Positions 2,389 to 19,299 of a DNA stretch of 50,836 nt are shown piece after piece. The DNA is taken from the IMG/VR virus record IMGVR_UViG_3300020016_000007, positions 1 through 50,836 of that record; one strand, 5' to 3'. Under the pieces are notes generated by a model. That model had not been told where the DNA came from. It saw only the letters and a list, made by a program, of their open reading frames with translations, and searched no databases. Position numbers and translations under genes: made by a program. How positions within the stretch are numbered: position 1 is the first letter of the stretch; each line of letters opens with the position of its first letter. The stretch is from a virus. Taxonomy: Duplodnaviria > Caudoviricetes.

Positions 2389-2403
2389 CTACAACTAATC
2401 CTT

Positions 2404-2435
2404 GCCCCTGCCCTAATCGGCAGGGGTTTTTTTTT
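2404..2435 (+). terminator. Rho-independent terminator
   Basis: gcccctgcc/ggcaggggt stem followed by a T run. Confidence 0.9.
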
Positions 2436-2547
2436 GTGCCTGCTTTCCGTGGCATGTGGCATCCTGTATACCAGCAATTTCTGACAGGTCCAAACCACAC
2501 TCGTACGTCCGGCCGAAACTATTCATAATCAATCATGTATACATCCG

Positions 2548-2623
2548 ATTATAGCTATAGCTAAATTCACAGTCGATCTTAGCTCGTCAAGACTGGTTAA
2601 CCTCAAACTAATTATAGCTATAA
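2548..2623. promoter_or_regulatory. Two ATTATAGCTATA copies (palindromic, operator-like)
   Basis: Copies at 2548-2559 and 2611-2622; ttatagctataa at 2612-2623 is a perfect palindrome just upstream of a promoter. Confidence 0.4.
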
Positions 2624-2632
2624 GTTCGCCGT

Positions 2633-2661
2633 TTGATTCCAAAAGATTACTGTGGTACTAT
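2633..2661 (+). promoter_or_regulatory. Sigma70-type promoter with extended -10
   Basis: TTGATT-17-TACTAT with TGn before the -10. Confidence 0.6.
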
Positions 2662-2904
2662 TCAGATAATGGAGAGAAGAAATGAAGGAAGCGACGGGCC
2701 TCTAGTCCTAGCGGGCCAAGCCATTCTCCAACACGTCGGTGATGCCTTCATTGATGTACGTCTACCATTGGTCCACAAACAAATGGTATCGTCATATAGG
2801 GTTCAAGGAACCCGTATAACCTAACCCTACTACGGGGAACGCATGACTTAGGCTCTGCGAGGGAAGCGTAGTAACCTTGCTTGCAGGTATAGCAAGCTCT
2901 TACC

Positions 2905-3083
2905 TGTGTTGCCATCAGCCCTGAGTGTAGGTCTGGGACTGCGTATACCTCGCCCTTCTGTATTCATCTTGTTTTCATGTGTTAGTAACCCCTGCCACAG
3001 TGCACAGTAACACATGAACTCAGCATGATACGTAGGCCAAGCAGACGTATGCTTCCTTTACATTCAGGGCTGACGCCAGCACA
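2905..3083 (+). ncRNA. 179-nt rod-like structured RNA element
   Basis: Nested pairings 2905-2911/3077-3083, 2915-2924/3064-3073 and 2974-2984/3008-3018, plus intermediate G-U-containing stems; no credible ORF. Confidence 0.6.
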
Positions 3084-3104
3084 TCGCTGGAATAGGAGGA
3101 CTAT

Positions 3105-3323
3105 ATGTCAGCACGTAGTGCGTATTGCACCGGATGCGGCGTAACGTTTATGCGTATGCATCAAATGATTAATCACCGTCGCACCGATAGGTGCGGTGGA
3201 CGTTTCTTGCCACCCGAAGAACGGGAGAAGCTGGACGAAGCACGCTTCTTCCGTGAAGCTGCTGCTCGTGCAGCACGTCCTGCGAAGAAGGTTCGCTCTG
3301 ATCTCCCGTATTGGGAGGTTTAG
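3105..3323 (+). CDS. Small zinc-finger-like protein
   Basis: C-x2-C-x12-H-x5-C (CTGC...HRRTDRC); GGAGGA RBS. Confidence 0.7.
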   Translation: MSARSAYCTGCGVTFMRMHQMINHRRTDRCGGRFLPPEEREKLDEARFFREAAARAARPAKKVRSDLPYWEV

Positions 3324-3515
3324 ATGATTATCATCATCATGGGTTGGACCAGAGAAGGTAAACCCCTCAACATGTACAAGATTGATATGTCTGTGACCGA
3401 GCACAAACATATCGACGATGTGGTGAGTGTATACAAACGTATGCATCCTAGTGCTGTCCGTGTTACGATGGACATTGCTTTACCTCTGTGTGACATGGAG
3501 GTTCCTAATGTCTAA
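3324..3515 (+). CDS. Hypothetical early protein
   Basis: GGAGG RBS; abuts the previous gene. Confidence 0.65.
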   Translation: MIIIIMGWTREGKPLNMYKIDMSVTEHKHIDDVVSVYKRMHPSAVRVTMDIALPLCDMEVPNV

Positions 3516-3732
3516 ATGTATTTGTAAGTTCAAGGCTGTGGGTCAGCCAATGAACCTCAACGGGTGCACCGTACACGAGGATGATTACACGTGTGATTTA
3601 TGTCCTCTCCACTTGTGTGCCATCTATCGTCCATCACGAGAATTCGTAGTGGGAAAGGACAGCTGGCCTGTATGTGTATGTGGCCATGTTGCACAAGATC
3701 ACAACGTGAGGGTCATATCATGTATCTTCTAG
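3508..3732 (+). CDS. Cys/His-rich small protein (probably metal-binding)
   Basis: GGAGG RBS; CxC, CxxH, CxxC and CxCGH motifs. Confidence 0.6.
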   Translation: MSKCICKFKAVGQPMNLNGCTVHEDDYTCDLCPLHLCAIYRPSREFVVGKDSWPVCVCGHVAQDHNVRVISCIF

Positions 3733-4238: not shown

Positions 4239-4547
4239 ATGACTAATGTGGTAAAAGCAATGGCCCAAGACCTCCAGCGTATTCCGGAGGTGGATAGATT
4301 ACCGAAGAGTGTTGAAGATGTCTGTGACATCATCGGCAATCAGTTCGGAGATACTGCCAACATGCTCGAAGATCGTGCTGAGGCACTGATCGGACGAGCG
4401 CAAGAGTTGAAGGACATGGCGAAACGTCTTCGTGAAGCCAGTGTCAACGTGCCTGTGAACTTGAAGAAGTGGGTTGGCGTCGAGATCGATTACCGAGACG
4501 CCGGTTTCAAGGTCAGTTCCGTCAACCCTGATCCTAACTACCGATAG
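4239..4547 (+). CDS. Hypothetical coiled-coil protein
   Basis: GGAG RBS; helical charged sequence. Confidence 0.7.
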   Translation: MTNVVKAMAQDLQRIPEVDRLPKSVEDVCDIIGNQFGDTANMLEDRAEALIGRAQELKDMAKRLREASVNVPVNLKKWVGVEIDYRDAGFKVSSVNPDPNYR

Positions 4548-8158: not shown

Positions 8159-8803
8159 ATGTTCGAATCAGTTAAAAGATTATTCCGCCAAGACCCTGAT
8201 AGGTCGGCGGAGGCATGGCACAGGCAATGTGAGTTGACACCAGACATCTGGTATCTCGAACAACATCATCGTCAGCTTATCTTCGTAGCTGATGATCTGA
8301 TGACAGACCACCGTCATAATCATATTCTGACGGAAGCGTCGGCATCAGGGGTTGACCCAATGCATCCGTACGCGTATACTCTCGATGATTACAAGTTCTA
8401 TCTGAAGGACCTCGGCAAGGTAAGTCACCCTGTCTTGATGGAGAAGGATGCAGAACTCACCGGCTTCGTCCGGTTCCCTCCTGAGCCTGCTCAGGTGAAG
8501 GGAGAATTGTGGTCAATTCGACCGTATCAGTTTATTAAGCTTGACAAGCTACGGCAGAATGGTATACAATTCGTCCGTAAGCGTGTATCCATTTTCCTTC
8601 CTGCAGTCGATGTCGTCTACACCAAGCAGCAACCCAATCCTAAGCTGGTGACAGCGAATGGTGTGGTTCGGGCGTGGATGTACGTCGGTATCCCTGAGTA
8701 TTGGGATACCCAACTTGGTGGTGTATTCGCTACCAAGGCTGCTCCGATGTACGAGCACGACTACCCAATCCCCGAAGTGAGAAGATTCTACAAGTTTGAG
8801 TAA
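8159..8803 (+). CDS. Gamma-glutamylcyclotransferase (GGCT/AIG2)-like protein
   Basis: IFVADDLM..H.HN, VKGELWSI, LDKL and RAWMYV follow the GGCT motif order; YGTL is degenerate. Confidence 0.6.
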   Translation: MFESVKRLFRQDPDRSAEAWHRQCELTPDIWYLEQHHRQLIFVADDLMTDHRHNHILTEASASGVDPMHPYAYTLDDYKFYLKDLGKVSHPVLMEKDAELTGFVRFPPEPAQVKGELWSIRPYQFIKLDKLRQNGIQFVRKRVSIFLPAVDVVYTKQQPNPKLVTANGVVRAWMYVGIPEYWDTQLGGVFATKAAPMYEHDYPIPEVRRFYKFE

Positions 8804-10310
8804 GATAGTCGAACAGCATATTCCCTGCCCCAGTTGCCCATCTTCTGATGCTTATTGCATCTATGAGGATGGGCACGGGTATTGTTTTTCTTGTTCCTTT
8901 TTTAAGCCTAAGGATAATCTAATTTTAGAAGATAAATTTACCTTTGAGTATTTACCCTACAGAGGCATTAACAAAGAAACATTTAGAAAATACAACGCCA
9001 TCACCAAGGTGGATGCGGATGGGAAGCCCGTTGCAATCTCATACCCACACCCGGACGGACAGAGTGCTAAGGTAAGAACATTACCGAAGGACTTTAAGTA
9101 CGTAGGCGATGTATCTAAAGTCGGTTGTTTTGGTACTAATGTGTTTGCGCCCGGCAGTCACAAATACCTAACCATCACAGAGGGGTACGAAGATGCTCTA
9201 TCACTTTATCAGGTTCTTGGTAGTCCTGTTATTTCTGTTAAATCAAGTGGCTCTGCTCTTCTTGATTGCACCAAGGATCGGAATTACATTAACTCCTTCG
9301 AGCGCATATACTTGGCTTTCGACGGAGACGGGCCGGGCAGAGAAGCGACTGCGGCCGTGGCTAAGTTGTTTGACTACAACAAACTCTACGTCGTCCGATA
9401 CCCCGGAGGAACAAGAAAGGATGCGAACGACTATCTCCAAGCCGGAGAACAATCCGAACTAAGAAATCTGTGGTGGAATAGCAAGAAGTTCCTCCCGGAT
9501 AACATCTCATCGTCGTTTGATGATTTCGAGAAGGAACTATTGACACCACCTAAGTACGGTGTGTCATGGCCATTCCCCACACTGACGTACATGACCTACG
9601 GGTTACGTACGAAGGAAGTCGTCCTCATTACCGCACAGGAAGGTGTCGGTAAGACTGAGGTGATGCACACTCTCGAACATCATTTATTGAAGGAGACAGA
9701 CGATGCCATCGGTGCGATCTATCTTGAAGAGTCAAAGCAGCGGCACTTACAATCAATTGCGGGGATTGAGCTACAAGCTCCAGTACACCTGCCGGACAGC
9801 GGCTATTCGACTGGCGAGGTATTCAGTGCTCTCAAGTCGGTGGTGCGCACCGATGATCGGCTGCACATCTATAGTCATTTTGGTTCTGATGATCCAGAAA
9901 CTCTTCTCGATACTATTCGATTTCTCGTTACTGCACGTGGCTGCCGGTGGATTTTGTTTGACCTTATTTCTCTGGCCGTGGCTGGTCTTGGCGGAGATAG
10001 AGAGAGAGAAGCCCTCGAATACCTCTCCGCCCGCCTCGAAATAATGACACAGGAGTTAGACTTTGGGTTGATAATGGTGAGTCATGTCAACGACTTCGGT
10101 CAGACACGTGGCTCACGAATGATCAGCAAGAATTGCCACATCCGGATTGATCTAACTCGTGATGTCACCAACCCTGATGACAGAGTTCGATTAATGACAG
10201 TTGTATCCATAAGTAAGAACCGTCCTGCACGTCGTACAGGTCCGGCAGGCCAGCTTCTATTCAACGATATAGCCTGTACTCTGAAAGAGGACACAGATGT
10301 CATGGCTTGA
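8796..10310 (+). CDS. T7 gp4-like DNA primase-helicase
   Basis: N-terminal Zn ribbon CPSC...CFSC, TOPRIM EG.ED and DGD, SF4 Walker A AQEGVGKT, VSH and KNR motifs. Confidence 0.95.
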   Translation: MSKIVEQHIPCPSCPSSDAYCIYEDGHGYCFSCSFFKPKDNLILEDKFTFEYLPYRGINKETFRKYNAITKVDADGKPVAISYPHPDGQSAKVRTLPKDFKYVGDVSKVGCFGTNVFAPGSHKYLTITEGYEDALSLYQVLGSPVISVKSSGSALLDCTKDRNYINSFERIYLAFDGDGPGREATAAVAKLFDYNKLYVVRYPGGTRKDANDYLQAGEQSELRNLWWNSKKFLPDNISSSFDDFEKELLTPPKYGVSWPFPTLTYMTYGLRTKEVVLITAQEGVGKTEVMHTLEHHLLKETDDAIGAIYLEESKQRHLQSIAGIELQAPVHLPDSGYSTGEVFSALKSVVRTDDRLHIYSHFGSDDPETLLDTIRFLVTARGCRWILFDLISLAVAGLGGDREREALEYLSARLEIMTQELDFGLIMVSHVNDFGQTRGSRMISKNCHIRIDLTRDVTNPDDRVRLMTVVSISKNRPARRTGPAGQLLFNDIACTLKEDTDVMA

Positions 10311-11467: not shown

Positions 11468-11489
11468 GCCCGCCTTCGGGCGGGTGTTT
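11468..11489 (+). terminator. UUCG hairpin upstream of polA (terminator or stabiliser)
   Basis: gcccgcc-TTCG-ggcgggt followed by gttt. Confidence 0.5.
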
Positions 11490-13455
11490 GGTAATTTTGA
11501 GAATAGTAATAGACATCGAATGTAATGCTCTCAACAACCCTGACAGGTGTTGGGTGATCGTGTGTAAGGACATAGACACAGGGAGTTACCATGTCTTCAG
11601 GCATCTTACAGAGGACCCACAAGAGGCTCGTGACTTCAGAGAATTCTGTAGTAAGGTTGACTTATTCGTGGGCCATAATTGGCTTGGTTACGACTGGCCT
11701 GTGCTTGTATTACTGGGTCTTCTTGAACCTCGTGATATTGTACCTCACTCGCTCGATACCCTCATAATATCCAAACTAGTCGATTATTCTCGGAATGGAC
11801 ACTCCATCGAGGACTACGGTCGAGAGTTTGGGTTAGAGAAAGGTAAATTCACCGACTTTTCTAAATACTCCCAACAGATGGAAGATTATTGTGTCAGAGA
11901 TGTGGACATATGTGAACGGATATACCGTAAGTTTAACCGTTATATATCTGATGTTAGTCACAGTGCTTCAATACTATTGGAACAGAGGTTCCAATTGGTG
12001 GTTAATGATCTTTCTAGAAACGGTTTTGCTTTTAATCGTAGCAAAGCTGATGGCCTACTCAGTAGGGTAGAGAAAGAATTAGCTATACTTGATAAAGATA
12101 TTCTTGAAGCATTTCCTCCTAAATTGAAGTTGATTAGGGAAATTCATCCTAAGGAGACTAAGTATGGAACCCTTAGCCGAACAGATTTTCGATGGCTTCA
12201 AGACAACGATCTTTCGGAGTATAATGGTGGGCCTTTCTGTCGGTGCAGTTGGACTGACTTTAATCCTAGTAGTCATAAGCAGATCGTTTCTGTACTGAAT
12301 GACGCAGGGTGGAAACCGACGGACCGGACACAGACCCACATAGATACCCAAAGAAGGTGGGATCGGCTAAAGTATGCTAAAGGGAATAGAATAGCACTTG
12401 ACACCGAGAAAAAAGAAGTCTATACTAAGCTCCAAGAATTAAGTAAGACTGGCTGGAAAGTCAACGAAGTTAACTTAGAGACTTTACCCCCCAAAGCCCC
12501 TCCTCCCGCCCGTTCGCTGGCGAAGCGCATCCTGCTTGAGGCTAGACGCCGTACCCTTGTGGAATGGCTAGCCCTCGTGTCCCCTACCGATGGCCGTATA
12601 CACGGTAAGTTTTATGGTATTGGTGCGTGGACACACAGGATGGCGCATCAAAATCCCAATACTGCCAACATCCCCAACGAGTATGACACTGCGGGTAAGA
12701 AGAAGCTGCTCGGCAAAGAACTCCGCTCTCTTTGGTGTGCACCTCGCAATCGTCTGCTCGTTGGGGTTGACGCAGAAGGAATTCAGTTACGTATCTTCGC
12801 TCATCTGATTAACGATCAGGAGTTTACAGATGCCCTTGTCAATGGCCGCAAAGAAGACAAGACCGATCCGCATTCACTTAACCAGTCAATTATTGGCAGT
12901 GCATGTAAATCCCGAGCAGCTGCTAAGCGATTCATTTACGCACTTCTCCTTGGTGCGGGAATGCCGAAGCTGGCTGAAATTCTTGGGTGTTCAATATCCG
13001 ACGCAGAGAAAGCTCTTGGTAATTTGCTGGATAGATACTCCGGTTGGACGTACCTTAAGGAACAGGTTTTTCCGAAGGATGCAAAGCGGGGATGGTTTAC
13101 AGGGTTGGACGGCCGTAAGGTATCCATACCCGGAGACACAGTAAGCAATCGTAAACATCTAGCGATGTCAGGCTACCTACAGAATGGCGAAGCCGTCTGT
13201 ATGAAATTAGCTACTCTTAAGTGGTATGATAAGTTAAAGAATTACGATGCAAAGTTGGTCAACTTAGTTCACGATGAATGGCAGGTTGAAGTCCCCAACA
13301 ACATGGAGATAGCGCTTAAAGTCGCTGCAACAATGTCAGACAGCCTTCGTGAAGTTGGGGATGACTTGAAGCTCAATTGTCCGTTAGCGGGGAGCTATTA
13401 CAATGATGACGTCAAGGACTACACCATCGCAACGAATTGGGCTCACACACATTGA
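11488..13455 (+). CDS. Family A (T7 gp5-like) DNA polymerase with 3'-5' exonuclease (start may be 11497)
   Basis: ExoI DIE, ExoII GHN..YD, ExoIII YCVRD; motif A DAEGIQLR, motif B R...KRFIY, motif C VHDE. Confidence 0.97.
   Translation: MVILRIVIDIECNALNNPDRCWVIVCKDIDTGSYHVFRHLTEDPQEARDFREFCSKVDLFVGHNWLGYDWPVLVLLGLLEPRDIVPHSLDTLIISKLVDYSRNGHSIEDYGREFGLEKGKFTDFSKYSQQMEDYCVRDVDICERIYRKFNRYISDVSHSASILLEQRFQLVVNDLSRNGFAFNRSKADGLLSRVEKELAILDKDILEAFPPKLKLIREIHPKETKYGTLSRTDFRWLQDNDLSEYNGGPFCRCSWTDFNPSSHKQIVSVLNDAGWKPTDRTQTHIDTQRRWDRLKYAKGNRIALDTEKKEVYTKLQELSKTGWKVNEVNLETLPPKAPPPARSLAKRILLEARRRTLVEWLALVSPTDGRIHGKFYGIGAWTHRMAHQNPNTANIPNEYDTAGKKKLLGKELRSLWCAPRNRLLVGVDAEGIQLRIFAHLINDQEFTDALVNGRKEDKTDPHSLNQSIIGSACKSRAAAKRFIYALLLGAGMPKLAEILGCSISDAEKALGNLLDRYSGWTYLKEQVFPKDAKRGWFTGLDGRKVSIPGDTVSNRKHLAMSGYLQNGEAVCMKLATLKWYDKLKNYDAKLVNLVHDEWQVEVPNNMEIALKVAATMSDSLREVGDDLKLNCPLAGSYYNDDVKDYTIATNWAHTH
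12398..12426 (+). promoter_or_regulatory. Near-consensus sigma70 promoter inside polA
   Basis: TTGACA-17-TATACT, same hexamers as the late promoter at 49433-49461. Confidence 0.6.
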
Positions 13456-13721: not shown

Positions 13722-14210
13722 TTGGCTTCAGAATTTATTGACGTTCAAGGCAAGGTGTCTTGGCTCCACGCGGTTAATTTCAACCGCTTCGACAAATGGA
13801 GCGTAACCCTACATCCCGATACCCGTAGCCTTGAGGTCATTAGAGACTTACAGGCTCAAGGTATTAAGAACCAAATGAAGAAGGACGACGATGGATATTA
13901 CATCCAGTTCAGTCGTGAACCTACCAAGCTTATGCGTGGTAAAGTCGTTGCCTTCCCTGCTCCAAAGGTAGTTGACAAAGAAGGAAAACCCATTGATGGG
14001 TCAGGGGTTGGAAACGGCAGTGATGCCACAGTCCGATTGGAAGTCTACCAACACGGAACTCCTAACGGAGGGAAGGCTAAAGCTGCACGCTTCGATTCGA
14101 TCAGGATCGACGCTCTCGTACCTTTCGATCGGTCGAGGGACTTCAAGACTGATGAAGAAAAAGAAGCTAATAAATCATTAACTGAAGCTCCTGAACCATT
14201 GTTTAATTAA
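13722..14210 (+). CDS. Single-stranded DNA-binding protein (T7 gp2.5-like)
   Basis: KWSVTL, PKVVD..GKP...VGNGS.A.V.LEVY OB-fold pattern, acidic tail with terminal Phe; follows polA. Confidence 0.75.
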   Translation: MASEFIDVQGKVSWLHAVNFNRFDKWSVTLHPDTRSLEVIRDLQAQGIKNQMKKDDDGYYIQFSREPTKLMRGKVVAFPAPKVVDKEGKPIDGSGVGNGSDATVRLEVYQHGTPNGGKAKAARFDSIRIDALVPFDRSRDFKTDEEKEANKSLTEAPEPLFN

Positions 14211-14221
14211 GGTATTTAAAG

Positions 14222-14755
14222 ATGACTATTACAGAAGCATTAGCTGAAATTAAGACTTTAGTGAAGCGTATCCAGAGCAAGAGGGAATTCATTGAGACCT
14301 ACCAGTTTCGCATTGATAGTCTCAAGGACCCTCTTGATAAGGACGGCGGCTCTGCGAAGGCTGTCTCCGAAGCTCAGCAGGCCGTCTCCGATCTGGAAAA
14401 GCGTATCGTTCTGCTCCGCAGCAAGATTGCTGAAGCCAACTCCAGCAACACCATTACTTTGGAAGGCACTGAGCTTTCTATCGAGAATTGGTTAATCTGG
14501 CGTCGGGAGATTGCCCCTGGTCAGGAGCGTTTCCTGAATGCGTTGGCGACTAGGCTAAACAATGCTCGTTCACAAATCCTTGGTCAGAAGGTGTCTTGGG
14601 GTGGTACTAAAACCTCAGAGGACAAACAAGTTGACCTTGTTGTCAATCTTGACGAGGCCAAGCTAAACTCCGACAAGGAAAAGATCAAGAATATCCTAGG
14701 CCAACTGGATGGGCAACTGTCCCTGAAAAACGCCACTATTCAGTTGGCTGCTTAG
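14222..14755 (+). CDS. DIP1984/DUF6847-like helical protein
   Basis: MT.TEAL...K...KRI start, I..AN....I core and LD.QLS.KNA...L end recall this family; recognised from memory only. Confidence 0.55.
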   Translation: MTITEALAEIKTLVKRIQSKREFIETYQFRIDSLKDPLDKDGGSAKAVSEAQQAVSDLEKRIVLLRSKIAEANSSNTITLEGTELSIENWLIWRREIAPGQERFLNALATRLNNARSQILGQKVSWGGTKTSEDKQVDLVVNLDEAKLNSDKEKIKNILGQLDGQLSLKNATIQLAA

Positions 14756-14760
14756 TATCT

Positions 14761-14863
14761 CTGGGGTGAGCCATTGAGACAGCTCCGCGTATGTGGTGTG
14801 GATCAAGATGTGGTAGACAAGAGAACGCGGGTCAGCCGCTGCGTCCCCGAAAACGCGGCTCCA
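14761..14863 (+). ncRNA. Structured RNA element ending in CCA
   Basis: Stems ccgcgt/acgcgg (14785-14830) and agccgc/gcggct; ends ctCCA then atttt. Confidence 0.3.
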
Positions 14864-14868
14864 ATTTT

Positions 14869-15138
14869 ATACTTTCGATAGCGAAGTGAGAAAACAATAA
14901 GCAAGTGGCCCGCTTAGGGCAATGATTCGAAATCATGCTTATGGTAGCAAACCGCAGGCTTACCATGCTCCTTCAAAGATCAACGCTCAGACTTTAAAGT
15001 TCATTAACTTCAAAGGTTAAAGCGTAAAGATCAAAGCTATTTAAAAACCCCTTACATAGTCTGGGTGTGTCAGAAATGATACACAACTGCCCGCTTATAG
15101 GCAGTATCTCAGGACGAAGGGCTGCTATATGGAAGTAT
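14869..15138 (+). ncRNA. ~270-nt multi-branched RNA with a central 7-nt-periodic NNYAAAG tract
   Basis: Closing stem 14869-14882/15124-15138 with G-U pairs; internal hairpins ataagc/gcttat, gccc/gggc, atggta/taccat, actgcc/ggcagt; heptamers at 14972-15036. Confidence 0.65.
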
Positions 15139-15150
15139 TTTAATTTGTTA

Positions 15151-15218
15151 ATTTGGGTTAAGCTTGCTGGACGGCATTTTTACCTCCTTTCCTATGCTTG
15201 CCAGCCAGAAACCCAAAT
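15151..15218 (+). ncRNA. Hairpin sRNA displaying an anti-Shine-Dalgarno loop
   Basis: atttgggtt/aacccaaat and gctgg/ccagc stems; loop tttttACCTCCTTtcc. Confidence 0.55.
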
Positions 15219-15220
15219 CT

Positions 15221-15295
15221 GCCGAGGACTCCCTGTAATACGCAAAGCGTTATATCGGGGGATAAACTGAAGTGATAATATCCTCCTCGGTTCCA
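15221..15295 (+). ncRNA. tRNA-sized element with acceptor-like stem and 3' CCA but no canonical D/T arms
   Basis: gccgagg/cctcggt + T + CCA; 75 nt; internal long hairpin. Confidence 0.4.
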
Positions 15296-15300
15296 TTTTC

Positions 15301-17053
15301 TGTCAGTGGTGTAGAAAGCGTAGAAAGACCTGACAACACAGGAAGACTTATGGGCTCCGCTCGGCATGGACCGGGTATAGTTGTACTGTTCTGGTGCGTG
15401 CACAGCACACCAATCCTAGTAGGACGTCTTAGGACGCTACTACCGAGACAACGTGAGCCGGTAGTTTGACCGAACGGATGGAGGCGCGGATTTACGACCC
15501 GTGTGACAGAAGAACTGTCCCTCGTAGTCCAAATACTTGAGGGATACCCCAGTATGTAGGTGTGATAATATCAGGTACATGCTGCAGCAGGCATAGGTTA
15601 GGCCCGGCCCCCATCAGTGACGTGGGTCTTGTCACAAACCAAGGTGTATATCGCTTCCCCTCCTGTGATGCAGGTTAAACATCAGCAATAGTCCTCTAGG
15701 GACACCACCCATCTTCTAGGAGTAGATGGAATGGGTACGTGCAACACGTACGTTAAAACGGTGAGGTGAGCAAAGGCGGAGGCCAACACCAACCAAGACG
15801 TATGCTCTGGTAGACAGCACTAAGTAGTCCTCGTAGACACTTCTTACCACATCGGTGGAATAGAAGGCCAGTAATGGCAGTGGTGCATTTAGTAGAGGTA
15901 GGAACGTCAGTGAGACGAGTCCACTGTGAATGGTGCACCGGCATTTAGAATGCCCTTAGGCGTTGAAACAGTGAGGACAAAAGTCCACTATCTTGAAGTA
16001 GTGGTACGGCTCGCAAAGCCCCCATGTGAATAGGATAGTGGCACCTATAGAAGCGACCACCCCTTTGTCGGGTATAGCCCGTCCTGAAGGAAGTTAGCTT
16101 CGATGTTATCTGCACAGGTGAATTCGTGATGAAAGGTCCGTCTTACCTAGGTTGAATAAGAGCAGTCATGACGTAGCTCTGGGGCTCCCAACCGACGATG
16201 GATGTAGAGACGATTGCCGCCGTCCCGTGCATGGTTAAAGAGAGTAGAACCTCTCAACGGTAGTAAAGTGGGTTCAAATCCACCATCATAGATGAAGCTC
16301 AGATAATGGAAACAACAGTACCGCTAAGGTACTAAACGCACTCAAACCCATTAAGCGCAAGATCGGCCCTGAACCGATCCTAGGCACTGGCTATGAACCA
16401 TCAGTCCCATGTATACGCATGACCCCGAGGGGGTCCTAGACTACGCTCTGCGTTGACGAAGCTCTGGGCCAAGGCTGAAAAGGACTAGCAGGTTGGTCGC
16501 GAACACTCCGTAACCGATCCCTCCGTGGCGGTGGTGAACCGCAGTCCTACGACGCAGAACGGAGAAACCAATACGGAAAGGACAGACCGTCCGGATGTCT
16601 AACATCTGGTCACTCTGTTAACGCCATCCGGCTGTTTACCGGATTGGCCAACTACTCTCAGCATCGAGAGGGAATACGAACGACGACTACAAGTAGTTAG
16701 AGCAGGAACAAAACTGGCTCACACGAAGGTGTAGGAGTGATCAGCATCTCAGTCTCTGTATATGTACACTATCTTACACAGTGGAAACCGCCTCAAGATG
16801 TGCTCTGAGCGAATACAGCCGGGACCTGATCCGTACGAACGTAGATTGTGAGAAGGGTAATCAATCCCCTCACGACGTCCTGAACCTCAACACTCCTCAA
16901 ATTCCAGCAGATTACTGGATACAGGTGGAGTATTTACGAACGGAGATCGTAACCATGAGATTCACCAACGATGCAGCCCCCAGAAGATTCACGAGGGGCT
17001 CCTACATCAGGAGTTCCTTAATAAGCCATCGGCAACTTGGACAACCTCCTTAA
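15301..17053 (+). ncRNA. Giant structured noncoding RNA (~1.75 kb; boundaries approximate)
   Basis: No credible CDS; >25 hairpins, e.g. 15417-15442, 15735-15751, 15985-16004, 16317-16333, 16361-16379, 16447-16455/16550-16558, 16591-16609, 16623-16648, 16975-17000; G-U pairs favour the + strand. Confidence 0.65.
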
Positions 17054-17155
17054 CAAAGAGGGGCGATAGTTAGCGATGGGGCCATGACTACCACGTGTCA
17101 TATACCGTGGCGCTCTGGCCCCGCCCCCAACGCCCCCACAACTCGGAGAAGTGTT

Positions 17156-17482
17156 ATGAGCAAGAATGGATCAGATTTGGTCGCAGTGTTGGAATACCTC
17201 GACCGCAAGCAGAGCTTCAAGCCGCCCAAGTCGGGCCGTAAGACTAAGAAGCTTGTTATCCCTGATGAATTCGACTTGATTTCCTACGTTCAGAAGAAGG
17301 AAGAAGAAGTCGAACGTTGGAAGAAGTATTTGAAGGACAAAGAGAAGTTGGAAAAGAAGGAAGAGAAGAAGCCAGAGTATAAGGGTCCGTCCCTGAAGTT
17401 CGTTGAGTGGTACATCATTGGTATTCTTTCTTATCCTCTCGTAGGCCATTTGTGGCAGCTAGCAACAACGGTGCCGAAATGA
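17156..17482 (+). CDS. Lys/Glu-rich protein with C-terminal membrane segment
   Basis: GGAG RBS; WYIIGILSYPLVGHLW. Confidence 0.7.
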   Translation: MSKNGSDLVAVLEYLDRKQSFKPPKSGRKTKKLVIPDEFDLISYVQKKEEEVERWKKYLKDKEKLEKKEEKKPEYKGPSLKFVEWYIIGILSYPLVGHLWQLATTVPK

Positions 17483-17778
17483 CAACCAGTAAAGACATCA
17501 ACAGTACTGAGTTTCCACGTGCGAAGAAGAATGGTTGGTTAGAAGCAGCTGATGTTCTTGACGGGCCTGAACAAGAATGTTATCCTCTGGTATATGTAAC
17601 CAATCCCAATCACGGTGGTAAAATAACTTGCCATAAATGTGGAGGGTTTATTCCTGAGGAAGATGCAATAAGCTATTGGAGCTTTCAGCATAGTGATGAG
17701 TTTCCTCATGCACATTTTCACAAAGATTGTTACAACGAATACGAACATTACTACGGACTGGATAAGCCTATTGACTAA
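17479..17778 (+). CDS. Hypothetical Zn-binding protein
   Basis: ATGA-coupled; CHKC...HxxC. Confidence 0.55.
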   Translation: MTTSKDINSTEFPRAKKNGWLEAADVLDGPEQECYPLVYVTNPNHGGKITCHKCGGFIPEEDAISYWSFQHSDEFPHAHFHKDCYNEYEHYYGLDKPID

Positions 17779-18619
17779 CATCCACCAACTAATCCCTGAC
17801 ATCTACAAACTCGTGGGGTCCGACAATGGCTGGCTCACCGATCTGGTCGCATCCGATATGGGTGACGACGTTGCAAGCGCTCTCAAACTTTCCTTCGGAC
17901 CCCAAGAGCCGCGTGGTTTACGTCTCAGCGGACTTGGCCCCTCCTGCCCTAAAGCTCTCTGGCATCACATCCGTACCCCCGAGCTTGCAGAACCCCTTCC
18001 TCCATATGCCCGTATCAAATATGCCTACGGACACATCATCGAGCACCTCGTTGTCGGTCTCGCGAAAGCCGCAGGACATGAAGTAACAGGAGAGCAAGAT
18101 GAAGTCTCTGTTGATGGAGTCACCGGCCATCGGGACTGCGTTATTGATGGCTGCATCGTTGATGTCAAATCTTCTTCTACCTTTGGCCTTCAGAAGCTCA
18201 AAGACAAAACTATTGCACAAGATGATAGTTTTGGGTATCTGGATCAACTTGACGGGTATCTTGTGGGGTCAATGGATGATCCTCTGGTCCGTACTAAGGA
18301 CCGGGCCTATCTCTTGGCTGTAGACAAAACCCTCGGACATATGGTATTATATGAGCACAGATTCAGAGAACAATCTATTAGGAAACGAATATCTGATTAC
18401 AAGCAGATTATTCGATCGGATCAACCACCTCGATGCGAATGCGGGATTGTCCCTGACGGCAAAAGTGGCAATCTTAAGCTCGATACAAAAGCTAGTTATA
18501 GTGCTTTCCGCCACGTATGCCATCCGGGCCTGCGGACGTTTCTTTACGCGTCAGGACCCGTCTACCTAACTAAGGTAATACGTCCTCCCGCACCACACAT
18601 TATTGAATTGAGAAATTAA
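17771..18619 (+). CDS. PD-(D/E)XK (Cas4-like) exonuclease
   Basis: LRLS.LG..C...LW, GH..E, GHRD...D...VDVKS and Q..GY motifs. Confidence 0.85.
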   Translation: MTNIHQLIPDIYKLVGSDNGWLTDLVASDMGDDVASALKLSFGPQEPRGLRLSGLGPSCPKALWHHIRTPELAEPLPPYARIKYAYGHIIEHLVVGLAKAAGHEVTGEQDEVSVDGVTGHRDCVIDGCIVDVKSSSTFGLQKLKDKTIAQDDSFGYLDQLDGYLVGSMDDPLVRTKDRAYLLAVDKTLGHMVLYEHRFREQSIRKRISDYKQIIRSDQPPRCECGIVPDGKSGNLKLDTKASYSAFRHVCHPGLRTFLYASGPVYLTKVIRPPAPHIIELRN

Positions 18620-18945: not shown

Positions 18946-19299
18946 TTGCAGAACTCGACGCGGAATAAATATCTTCTTAGGAAATTTGGAATAACAGAGG
19001 TACAATACGATGAGTTACTTCTCAAGCAGAATGGCTGCTGTGGAGTTTGTGGACGAAAAGCTGAGGAATTCAAAACCCGGCTCGCCGTTGATCATGACCA
19101 TTGGACGGGACAGATACGGGGACTATTATGCTCATTCTGTAATCGACGAGTCATTGGACGTTACAGACTTGACAAGGGATGCGACCTTCTTAAGAGAGGT
19201 TATGAGTACCTCACAAGAGAATACCCCGGCTGGATAGTACCACCTAGAAGGAAAAAGAAACATGGTAGGAAAAGATTACGACGAATTCGACCTGCGTGA
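18946..19299 (+). CDS. Recombination endonuclease VII-like protein
   Basis: FGIT..QY..LL..Q.G.CGVC, LAVDHDH.TG.IRGLLC..CN. Confidence 0.9.
   Translation: MQNSTRNKYLLRKFGITEVQYDELLLKQNGCCGVCGRKAEEFKTRLAVDHDHWTGQIRGLLCSFCNRRVIGRYRLDKGCDLLKRGYEYLTREYPGWIVPPRRKKKHGRKRLRRIRPA

Follow-up and report, generated by a model that had tools for sequence, protein, structure and literature searches.

The window analysed here is the whole 50,836-nt DNA stretch of the IMG/VR virus record IMGVR_UViG_3300020016_000007 (Duplodnaviria; Caudoviricetes), a complete, linear virus with a CheckV completeness of 100. Positions 15294–17063 on its + strand probably represent the gene for a highly structured non-coding RNA of about 1.8 kb that belongs to an uncatalogued class; the probability of this reading is put at about 0.6. 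The sequence lies in a large gap between protein genes. Positions 14756–17083 (2328 nt) are not covered by any open reading frame (ORF) of at least 100 aa. This is the longest such run in the 50.8-kb genome, the next longest being 800, 767 and 709 nt. An earlier reading of the letters alone (the sequence-only reading) had described 14756–17155 as an island of non-coding RNA that has no credible protein gene and contains a giant structured RNA.

Non-coding character and covariation of the RNA core

The sequence at 15294–17063 is not protein-coding. Mismatches at 15294–17062 are distributed over the three codon positions as 50, 62 and 54 in comparison with the related locus L001 (p=0.51) and as 27, 34 and 34 in comparison with L003 (p=0.6), i.e., there is no periodicity. 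The polymerase, single-stranded DNA-binding protein (SSB) and exonuclease genes, compared with the same two relatives, show a third-position excess of substitutions with p from 1e-5 to 2.5e-24. Most indel runs in the RNA break the frame, with a length not divisible by three in 29 of 38 cases against L001 and in 19 of 20 against L003. When TAG, TGA or TAA is read singly as sense, no frame opens across the gap. The claim that 14756–17155 has no credible coding sequence thus stands: the run is free of ORFs, codon periodicity is absent and no stop reassignment opens a frame. The longest + strand ORFs within the gap are 90, 67 and 65 aa, and all three were rejected as genes. The 90-aa ORF (16781–17053) is not conserved as a protein, its product being only 57% identical to the L001 counterpart and having no match in L003, and DNA blocks around it are 80–88% identical to L001. 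The 67-aa and 65-aa ORFs have no or trivial matches.

Homologues were found in viral and soil metagenome contigs. The exonuclease encoded downstream, used as query, gave 70 IMG/VR loci, and a sequence search of these matched most of the gap in L001 and L003 and parts of it in L002. A 22-base pattern from the best-conserved hairpin found seven metagenome stretches, comprising the new versions L089 and L091, the latter equalled in score by L094, and further copies of L002 and L003. The core family therefore consists of six distinct sequences (the window, L001, L003, L002, L089 and L091; alignment A1). Their alignment shows invariant blocks that alternate with stretches variable in sequence and length, a pattern that in such an alignment is typical of structured RNA. 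Other pattern searches were less productive. In IMG/VR the core pattern (AGGTGTGATNNTATCAGGT) is present in 13 stretches, three of which are known homologues; the other ten were discarded as chance matches in unrelated, apparently coding DNA. L086 and L087, from a pattern search with the 3' word described below, are unrelated loci, and a search with the CAGAUUA-loop hairpin was too strict, returning just three contigs already known.

Helices of the RNA covary strongly across the six sequences. Predicted pairs were compared with controls in which the partners were slid by 1–3 columns and with 500 shuffles. The model of the whole RNA (15294–17063, + strand) has 206 predicted pairs in 43 helices, with 87.2% of cells paired versus 35–39% when slid, and 93 pairs changed on both sides versus 24–30 when slid. 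The observed values were reached by none of the 500 shuffles. The sub-domain at 16505–16615 (alignment A4) is the best supported. It has 24 pairs, 17 of them changed on both sides, and 99.3% of cells paired versus 25–45% when slid, again with 0 of 500 shuffles reaching these values. Alignment A2 (15478–15660) has 36 pairs, 16 changed on both sides, and A3 (16495–16750) has 27 pairs, 19 changed on both sides. Additional covarying hairpins are present at 16361–16379, at 16904–16917 and at the 3' terminus. The island described by the sequence-only reading is accordingly borne out as structured RNA, with the helices of this element of about 1.77 kb as the evidence.

In a held-out test, the window, L001 and L003 alone were used to predict helices, and L002, L091 and L089 to score them. 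The A4 sub-domain retains 84% of cells paired versus 20–45% when slid, and 14 of 15 cells changed on both sides stay standard pairs. The corresponding values for A2 are 65% versus 32–43%. A covariance model of the A4 sub-domain (R1) gives the six homologues 89.6–113.6 bits, and the next best score in 774,498 bases is 14.2 bits. At predicted pairs there are 139 G-U or U-G cells as against 35 A-C or C-A cells. This agrees with the earlier suggestion that G-U pairing works on the + strand, and the excess is consistent with that strand, though the prediction itself used + strand pairing rules.

The RNA matches no catalogued family. Rfam 15, where models of GOLLD, ROOL, tRNA, tmRNA and introns are to be expected, gave no match at gathering score for the window or for the loci of 11 relatives. 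A scan of 14500–17400 against all of Rfam with E up to 10 gave just two chance matches to unrelated families, and all-Rfam scans of 11, 5 and 4 relatives' loci gave no relevant match. There was no match to GOLLD or ROOL in the all-Rfam scans, the presence of either model in the library being unconfirmed by accession. The same scans gave no match to self-cleaving ribozymes, RNase P RNA, OLE, raiA or Y-RNA-like (YrlA) RNAs, with the presence of each model in the library likewise unconfirmed. Group I and group II introns had no all-Rfam match, and the flanking genes are complete; in L001 the SSB is full-length (88% identity over 162 aa) and its gene stops immediately upstream of the RNA. ARAGORN found no tRNA or tmRNA genes in the window, and all-Rfam scans gave no match to these even at E up to 1–10; with lowered thresholds and introns allowed, ARAGORN returned noise alone on both strands. 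The model of small-subunit (SSU) rRNA, RF00177, had no match in the window at E up to 10 and no first-pass candidate, while all 14 of 14 control genomes matched. The absence of a known family from Rfam 15, ARAGORN and RF00177 searches leaves the proposed novelty of the RNA standing. Sensitive blastn against 50,697 GenBank phage records gave no DNA match, and a core-pattern scan of 185,579 species genomes found no copy and no host or prophage lead. Literature searched at the level of abstracts contains no description of the RNA; supplements might list further RNA classes.

Anatomy of the giant RNA

The core at 15294–17063 (+ strand) is modelled as two domains. The 5' domain of about 1.1 kb (15298–16397) is closed by a helix of 15298–15307 with 16386–16397, which has nine pairs, three of them changed on both sides, and 90.7% of cells paired. 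The 3' domain runs from there to about position 17063. Further long-range helices with compensatory changes join 16199–16205 with 16338–16344 and 16741–16749 with 16821–16829. The best-conserved hairpin of the 5' domain (15550–15584, helix 9) has a 9-bp covarying stem around an invariant UGAU...AUCA hairpin (AGGUGUGAUnnUAUCAGGU). It has 14 pairs, six changed on both sides, with 100% of cells paired, and its motif served as the search pattern for homologues. The best-supported sub-domain at 16505–16615 consists of three nested helices and a hairpin with invariant GGUGA, AAAYCAAUAC and CUA loops.

Other parts of the RNA are variable. The peripheral segment at 15819–16045 is missing in L001, the closest relative, and a 47.9-kb soil contig (run X11) joins across it, skipping 225 nt. 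L001 also has about 145 other letters in place of 16619–16679, and this independent 47.9-kb contig has the same joints as L001. A comparison of L001 with window positions 15294–17155 reveals a mosaic, in which identical-reading stretches (e.g., 16340–16520 and 16688–16760) alternate with diverged or replaced segments. The mosaic pattern suggests recombination between RNA modules of related phages.

The hairpins singled out in the sequence-only reading have fared unevenly. Those at 15417–15442 (inner CGUC/GACG versus UAUC/GAUA), 16317–16333 and 16591–16609 are upheld by compensatory changes; the last has four pairs changed on both sides and none broken. The proposed long-range pairing of 16447 with 16558 is not supported, and L001 and L003 lose it. 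The hairpins at 15735–15751, 15882–15939, 15985–16004 and 16975–17000 are lineage-specific or in segments missing from relatives, 15985–16004 falling inside the segment that L001 is without. The T-loop-like element that had also been noted is conserved, with GUUCAAAU at 16268–16283.

This T-loop hairpin, GUGG-GUUCAAAU-CCAC, has a 4-bp stem and an 8-nt loop; in L001 and L003 it reads GGAG-GUUCAAAU-CUCC. It is part of an expanded cloverleaf-like four-way junction (16126–16289) with two enlarged arms and immediately precedes the 3' strand of a stem resembling an acceptor stem (16126–16131 with 16284–16289). The acceptor-like stem has compensatory changes among the window, L001 and L003 (GUGAUG/CAUCAU, AGAAUG/CAUUCU and UAGACG/CGUCUA), and the stem of 16214–16223 with 16257–16266 has compensatory changes among the three as well. 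Neither ARAGORN nor Rfam calls a tRNA in the junction. With tRNAs and tRNA-like modules it shares a stem of 4–5 bp and a UUCRANY loop, placed in the window lineage in a four-way junction before an acceptor-like 3' strand. Unlike a tRNA, it has no 7-nt anticodon loop and its arms are expanded to about 164 nt, and the T-arms of other lineages are without acceptor stems.

A small hairpin is repeated along the RNA, with four to five copies in all. It has a 4-bp stem and a conserved loop of 10–12 nt, WGAY-N(2-4)-RCUC. Copy 1 (15792–15815) reads ACCA.AGACGUAUGCUC.UGGU. Copy 4 (16792–16813) maintains the same loop on stems that differ, CUCA/UGAG in the window, CGCA/UGCG in L001, ACCA/UGGG in L003 and GGUA/UACC in L089. 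Looser copies are near 16166–16186 and 16452–16471. The only direct repeat, a single 15-nt pair, led to this hairpin. GCUCUG is present five times on the + strand of the window's RNA and not on the reverse strand, with 0.3 in shuffles. Another copy (CGCA.UGACUUAGGCUC.UGCG) is found at 2840–2863, in an early ORF-free region (2399–3107). The repeated hairpin may thus be a general binding or processing signal of the phage, not peculiar to the giant RNA.

Near the 3' end, the hairpin at 16904–16917 (helix 41) has a conserved CAGAUUA loop, with 100% of cells paired and two pairs changed on both sides. This hairpin and a few flanking bases recur in L038, and in L052 with one loop change. The invariant 3' word ACCUCCUUAACAAAG is at 17044–17058 and is followed by a purine-rich stretch with which it may pair locally. 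All six homologues and a second lineage retain its CCUCCUUAA part, and CCTCCTTA is found a single time on the + strand of the whole window. The 9 nt of ACCUCCUUA coincide with the 3' tail of 16S rRNA, which carries the anti-Shine-Dalgarno sequence; no other similarity to SSU rRNA is detectable. The overlapping CUCCUUAACAA agrees at 10 of 11 positions with the rrn boxA and spacer printed in PMC2724277. The word fits either an anti-Shine-Dalgarno or a boxA reading. Positions 17075–17155 contain a G+C-rich hairpin with CAUGAC...GCUCUG in its loop, then a C-rich tract and a ribosome-binding site. The terminal stem covaries, with variants GGGGCCA/UGGCCCC in the window, GGGGGGCA/UGCUCCCC in L003, GGGGGCA/UGUCCCC in L089 and UGGGC/GCCCA in L091.

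Neighbouring genes, an upstream small RNA and same-site gaps

The left arm of the genome is transcribed rightward and the right arm leftward. The giant RNA locus is within the replication/recombination gene block, between the SSB gene (with an optional gene for a 177-aa protein that has its own small RNA) and a gene for a small Lys/Glu-rich membrane-type protein, which is followed by a Cas4-like exonuclease. Upstream are genes for a primase-helicase (8796–10310), a family A DNA polymerase (11488–13455), a gp2.5-like SSB (13722–14210) and, directly before the gap, the 177-aa protein (14222–14755), which has no assigned function. The label "DIP1984-like" given to the latter in the sequence-only reading was not confirmed, the Pfam match to DUF6847 having E=0.64 and 10.4 bits against a cut-off of 27. 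Downstream are the Cas4-like exonuclease (17693–18619) and endonuclease VII (18946–19299). The gene of the small protein can be annotated as an ORF from position 17084, but the ribosome-binding site GGAGAAG and the ATG at 17156 are conserved in L001 and L003 (17145–17158). The start is therefore most likely ATG 17156, and the end coordinate of 17155 first proposed for the island fits. The 108-aa product of 17156–17482 is Lys/Glu-rich and has a hydrophobic C-terminal helix. Small proteins of similar composition come after the giant RNA in other lineages (L002, L089 and L004-type); with E up to 0.01, neither Pfam nor NCBIfam gives a match for any of these Lys/Glu-rich proteins.

The gap also contains a second structured RNA, Unit A, of about 280 nt (14862–15140, + strand). 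The earlier suggestion that the island holds more than one RNA element is thereby sustained, with Unit A and the RNA of about 1.77 kb as two of them. Unit A begins about 110 nt after the stop codon of the 177-aa gene. A long stem at about 14869–14882 with 15124–15138 closes it, and inside are two hairpins that covary and, in the centre, a tract rich in A and U where YAAAG words are repeated. The seven-row alignment A8 has 34 predicted pairs, 19 of them changed on both sides. The G+C content dips to 0.40–0.41 at 14850–15300. By nhmmer, the Unit A block is found in L003, L017, L028, L029, L031 and L055, all of which encode a homologue of the 177-aa protein, and in no locus without one; L001, L002 and L091 have neither Unit A nor the gene. 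The gene and Unit A are thus a candidate protein-RNA pair that travels together. L029 and L031 each show a second, upstream match to Unit A (at about 2100–2510, compared with 3257–3545). The upstream copy overlaps the SSB homologue (2145–2624 in L029) and aligns poorly, and these upstream matches are probably spurious. In L055, the variable part of A8 (at about 2790–2890) includes a T-arm hairpin together with a segment resembling a tRNA 5' half, with its acceptor strand and D-arm. T-arm hairpins are present at the same spot in L003 and L017, and the window has AUGA-UUCGAAA-UCAU there. Between Unit A and the giant RNA is a spacer (15141–15293, + strand) that has window-specific hairpins and is not conserved in relatives. 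Most of it is deleted or cannot be aligned in L003, and L001 is without it altogether, its giant RNA coming straight after the SSB gene.

ORF-free stretches at the same site are common in close relatives. Close relatives were assessable if their exonuclease was at least 50% identical and 3.5 kb or more of sequence was available upstream. Of these 48, 39 have a run of 900 nt or more without an ORF (median 1206 nt), compared with one of eight distant relatives (median 58 nt). In most close relatives the stretch is 0.9–2.2 kb. The cultured relatives Sinorhizobium phage phiM6 and Roseobacter phage CRP-13, with exonucleases 40.4% and 38.6% identical to that of the window, have no such gap, and no laboratory phage carrying the RNA was found. 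The gap sequences form many clusters that show no mutual blastn similarity. They do share signature words, namely T-arm hairpins, CCUCCUUAA, the CAGAUUA-loop hairpin and GCUAAAAC. Motifs were counted in 52 syntenic gaps on the + strand and compared with the reverse complement and with shuffle means. T-arm hairpins (5-bp stem, 7-nt UUCRANY loop) are found in 36 gaps, often with two to four per gap, and in none on the reverse complement (0.7 in shuffles). CCUCCUUA and CCTCCTTA each have counts of 17 of 52, with 4 on the reverse complement and 0.9 in shuffles, and GCUAAAAC is present in 10 of 52 (0 and 1.1). The strict pattern of the repeated hairpin gives 9 on the + strand, 1 on the reverse complement and 0.25 in shuffles.

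The T-arm hairpins are not tRNAs. They are rejected by ARAGORN and Rfam, and an adjacent acceptor stem is no commoner than chance, with 7 of 7 pairs formed in 7 of 50 T-arms versus 181 of 1040 control sites. ARAGORN called one tRNA over 74 related loci. This sole true tRNA (Met, CAU) is at 4303–4376 in L072, a more distant relative, where it is upstream of the 177-aa homologue and outside the gap.

A second lineage, the L004-type (L004, L005, L006, L010, L011 and L052; 59–89% identical), has 78 predicted pairs, of which 35 are changed on both sides. Its structure is multi-branched with three T-arm hairpins as terminal branches, and it ends as in the window: ...GACCUCCUUAA, hairpin, GGAG, ATG. 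Only CCUCCUUAA of the 3' word is kept in other lineages, the AACAA part being variable. Profile searches gave collinear bridging matches between lineages in L038, L052, L036, L029 and L031. L038 has a window-lineage match at both ends and an L004-type match in the middle; L052 and L036 have longer shared words, identical or nearly so. The gaps are read here as one fast-evolving superfamily.

The sequence is present in soil metagenome runs of 13 studies. A soil metatranscriptome (X12) contains two exact 151-nt contigs inside the RNA (16217–16367 and 16422–16572). In addition, a diverged contig falls in Unit A, and the exonuclease gene has a partial match of 53 nt. The X12 data are contigs selected with words from the RNA, so that uncovered flanks are uninformative.

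Alternative explanations and possible function

A number of results speak against an uncatalogued giant RNA or limit what can be said of it. The core family has only six distinct sequences, and model R1 found no member beyond these in the 774,498 bases searched. Most structures were predicted on the same alignments on which they were then counted, a circularity that the held-out test removes only in part. For the whole RNA that test gives a modest signal, 56% of cells paired versus 35–40% when slid, with 85 of 157 cells changed on both sides staying standard pairs. Folding z-scores in 150-nt windows have a mean of -0.84 on the + strand of the RNA (n=11) versus -0.52 in coding flanks (n=24), which is not better, and folding thus matches one of the outcomes (no better than shuffled controls) that the sequence-only reading had said would refute it. 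This result is given little weight relative to the covariation and is put down to the z-score test, which suits an RNA with long-range helices poorly. The metatranscriptome provides a weak hint of transcription, since it was found with words from the RNA itself and carry-over of DNA is possible, and a promoter and terminator scan of the RNA flanks found nothing above shuffles. No conserved palindromic loops point to kissing-loop multimers of the GOLLD type. Homology within the superfamily is argued from short shared words and weak collinear nhmmer matches, and every functional statement made below is drawn from sequence features.

The main rival, in our view an unlikely one, is that the island is a precursor, a long transcript that cleavage at the repeated hairpins or at tRNA-like modules would divide into several RNAs of about 300 nt, as in tRNA punctuation or the processing of rRNA operons. 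Hairpins with the WGAY..RCUC loop are about 270–370 nt apart (15797, 16170, 16455, 16797 and about 17100), the same hairpin is found at 2840 in the other non-coding region, segments are gained and lost as modules between relatives, and T-arm hairpins are the commonest shared feature. However, the three covarying long-range helices (15298–15307/16386–16397, 16199–16205/16338–16344 and 16741–16749/16821–16829) tie distant parts together, RNase P would need an acceptor stem and none is present beside the T-arms beyond chance, and Rfam shows no self-cleaving ribozyme. Improbable to a greater degree is a cis-acting leader, i.e., an over-sized nut-like or antitermination element (boxA-like word and hairpin) combined with a translational control region and having no role in trans. 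The 10 of 11 match of CUCCUUAACAA to the printed boxA plus spacer (PMC2724277) would fit such a leader, as would the covarying hairpin that follows the 3' word about 30 nt upstream of the next ribosome-binding site and the co-orientation of the RNA with its neighbours with no terminator between. The last 110 nt or so would suffice for this purpose, which leaves about 1.7 kb of covarying multi-domain structure unexplained; the AACAA part of the 3' word varies in other lineages, where CCUCCUUAA alone is kept, and cultured relatives have the same gene order without such a region. In common with the nut sites of lambdoid phages and rrn leaders, for which boxA sequences are printed in PMC2724277, there is a single-stranded word like rrn boxA plus spacer with a hairpin behind it, ahead of a gene block. 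The giant RNA differs in that the 10 of 11 positions hold in the window lineage only, with fewer elsewhere, and in that its invariant part is the anti-Shine-Dalgarno-like CCUCC. The word is also at the end of a 1.8-kb RNA and not just after a promoter, and no N-like protein was identified.

The three other explanations have little credence. A decaying tRNA island, made of functionless remnants of phage tRNA genes, would account for the abundance of T-arm hairpins, for the tRNA-Met near the locus in L072 and for the tRNA-half-like piece in L055. Decay would not keep helices by compensatory change or preserve invariant loops, a recognisable tRNA is present in one of 74 loci, and most of the covarying structure is not tRNA-like; this explanation is very improbable and is largely refuted. 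Slightly less probable still is that the site works at the DNA level, as an origin of replication, or encodes several small or recoded proteins. The site is inside a replication module, the G+C dip is present and ORFs of 65–90 aa exist, but compensatory changes that tolerate G-U pairs are a signature of RNA and the dip falls in Unit A, not in the giant RNA. Small genes are at odds with the absent codon periodicity, with the frame-breaking indels, with ORFs unconserved as proteins and with the failure of any stop reassignment to open the region. The least probable is a diverged derivative or mimic of SSU rRNA, brought to mind by a length near that of 16S rRNA and by the word ACCUCCUUA, which presumably equals the 16S 3' tail. 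It was rejected, as RF00177 found nothing at E up to 10 while matching 14 of 14 controls, and the permissive all-Rfam scan showed no such similarity either.

A giant non-coding RNA is therefore the preferred reading, and the closest known kind is, as a best guess by analogy, that of the ornate phage RNAs GOLLD and ROOL. According to the portions consulted of a 2025 paper (PMC12286853), GOLLD and ROOL are phage RNAs often near tRNA islands, with tRNAs sometimes in the GOLLD linker, and both form RNA-only cages. The same portions report that GOLLD binds ribosomes in pull-downs and has "many members exceeding 800 nucleotides", and that ROOL (rumen-originating, ornate, large) is found in phages and prophages with no known protein partner or function (PMC12286853). 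Both GOLLD and the giant RNA come from phages or prophages, are very large, comprise several domains, combine a conserved with a variable part and are associated with elements of tRNA type. Unlike GOLLD, the giant RNA is about twice the size given for that family, is in a soil-podovirus replication module and not beside a tRNA island, and has T-arm hairpins and a tRNA-like junction but no whole tRNAs, with no palindromic kissing loops seen. ROOL is likewise a large ornate RNA of phages and prophages, yet its size, sequence and helices are unrelated to those of the giant RNA, which has no all-Rfam match.

Transcription of the giant RNA would run rightward together with that of adjacent genes, and the RNA would fold into the 5' domain of about 1.1 kb and a 3' domain of about 0.66 kb, with peripheral arms that can be swapped. 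It may serve as a trans-acting scaffold, of RNA alone or with protein, the role suspected for GOLLD and ROOL. The modules predicted to be exposed are a tRNA-elbow-like T-loop in the expanded cloverleaf, the four to five copies of the hairpin with its conserved 10-nt loop, and the 3' word. Because of the T-loop, the repeated hairpin and the anti-Shine-Dalgarno/boxA-like modules, the RNA is suggested to engage tRNA-handling, ribosome or Nus machinery of the host during infection. A bolder and still doubtful extension is that it is the founding member of a superfamily of 1.3–2.2-kb RNA machines in a clade of soil podoviruses, which would be the largest structured RNAs known from bacteria and phages besides rRNAs and introns. 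Such RNAs would evolve fast while keeping the T-loop modules and the 16S-tail/boxA-like word, and they might act by mimicry in capturing or reprogramming translation, tRNA-modification or Nus factors of the host. They might do so as a large RNA assembly, like those that cryo-EM shows for GOLLD and ROOL.

To our knowledge, very few classes of large structured RNA are known in bacteria and their viruses. GOLLD, ROOL, OLE and raiA are large structured RNAs whose functions are long-standing puzzles. The giant RNA described here is a new, well-delimited target for structure determination, and dozens of related soil phages with diverged versions at one fixed place provide a natural series for covariation analysis. 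The T-loop modules, the repeated hairpin with its fixed loop and the anti-Shine-Dalgarno/boxA-like word offer handles. More generally, a "gene-free" 4–5% of a phage genome, left blank in standard annotation, can be its most constrained RNA structure.

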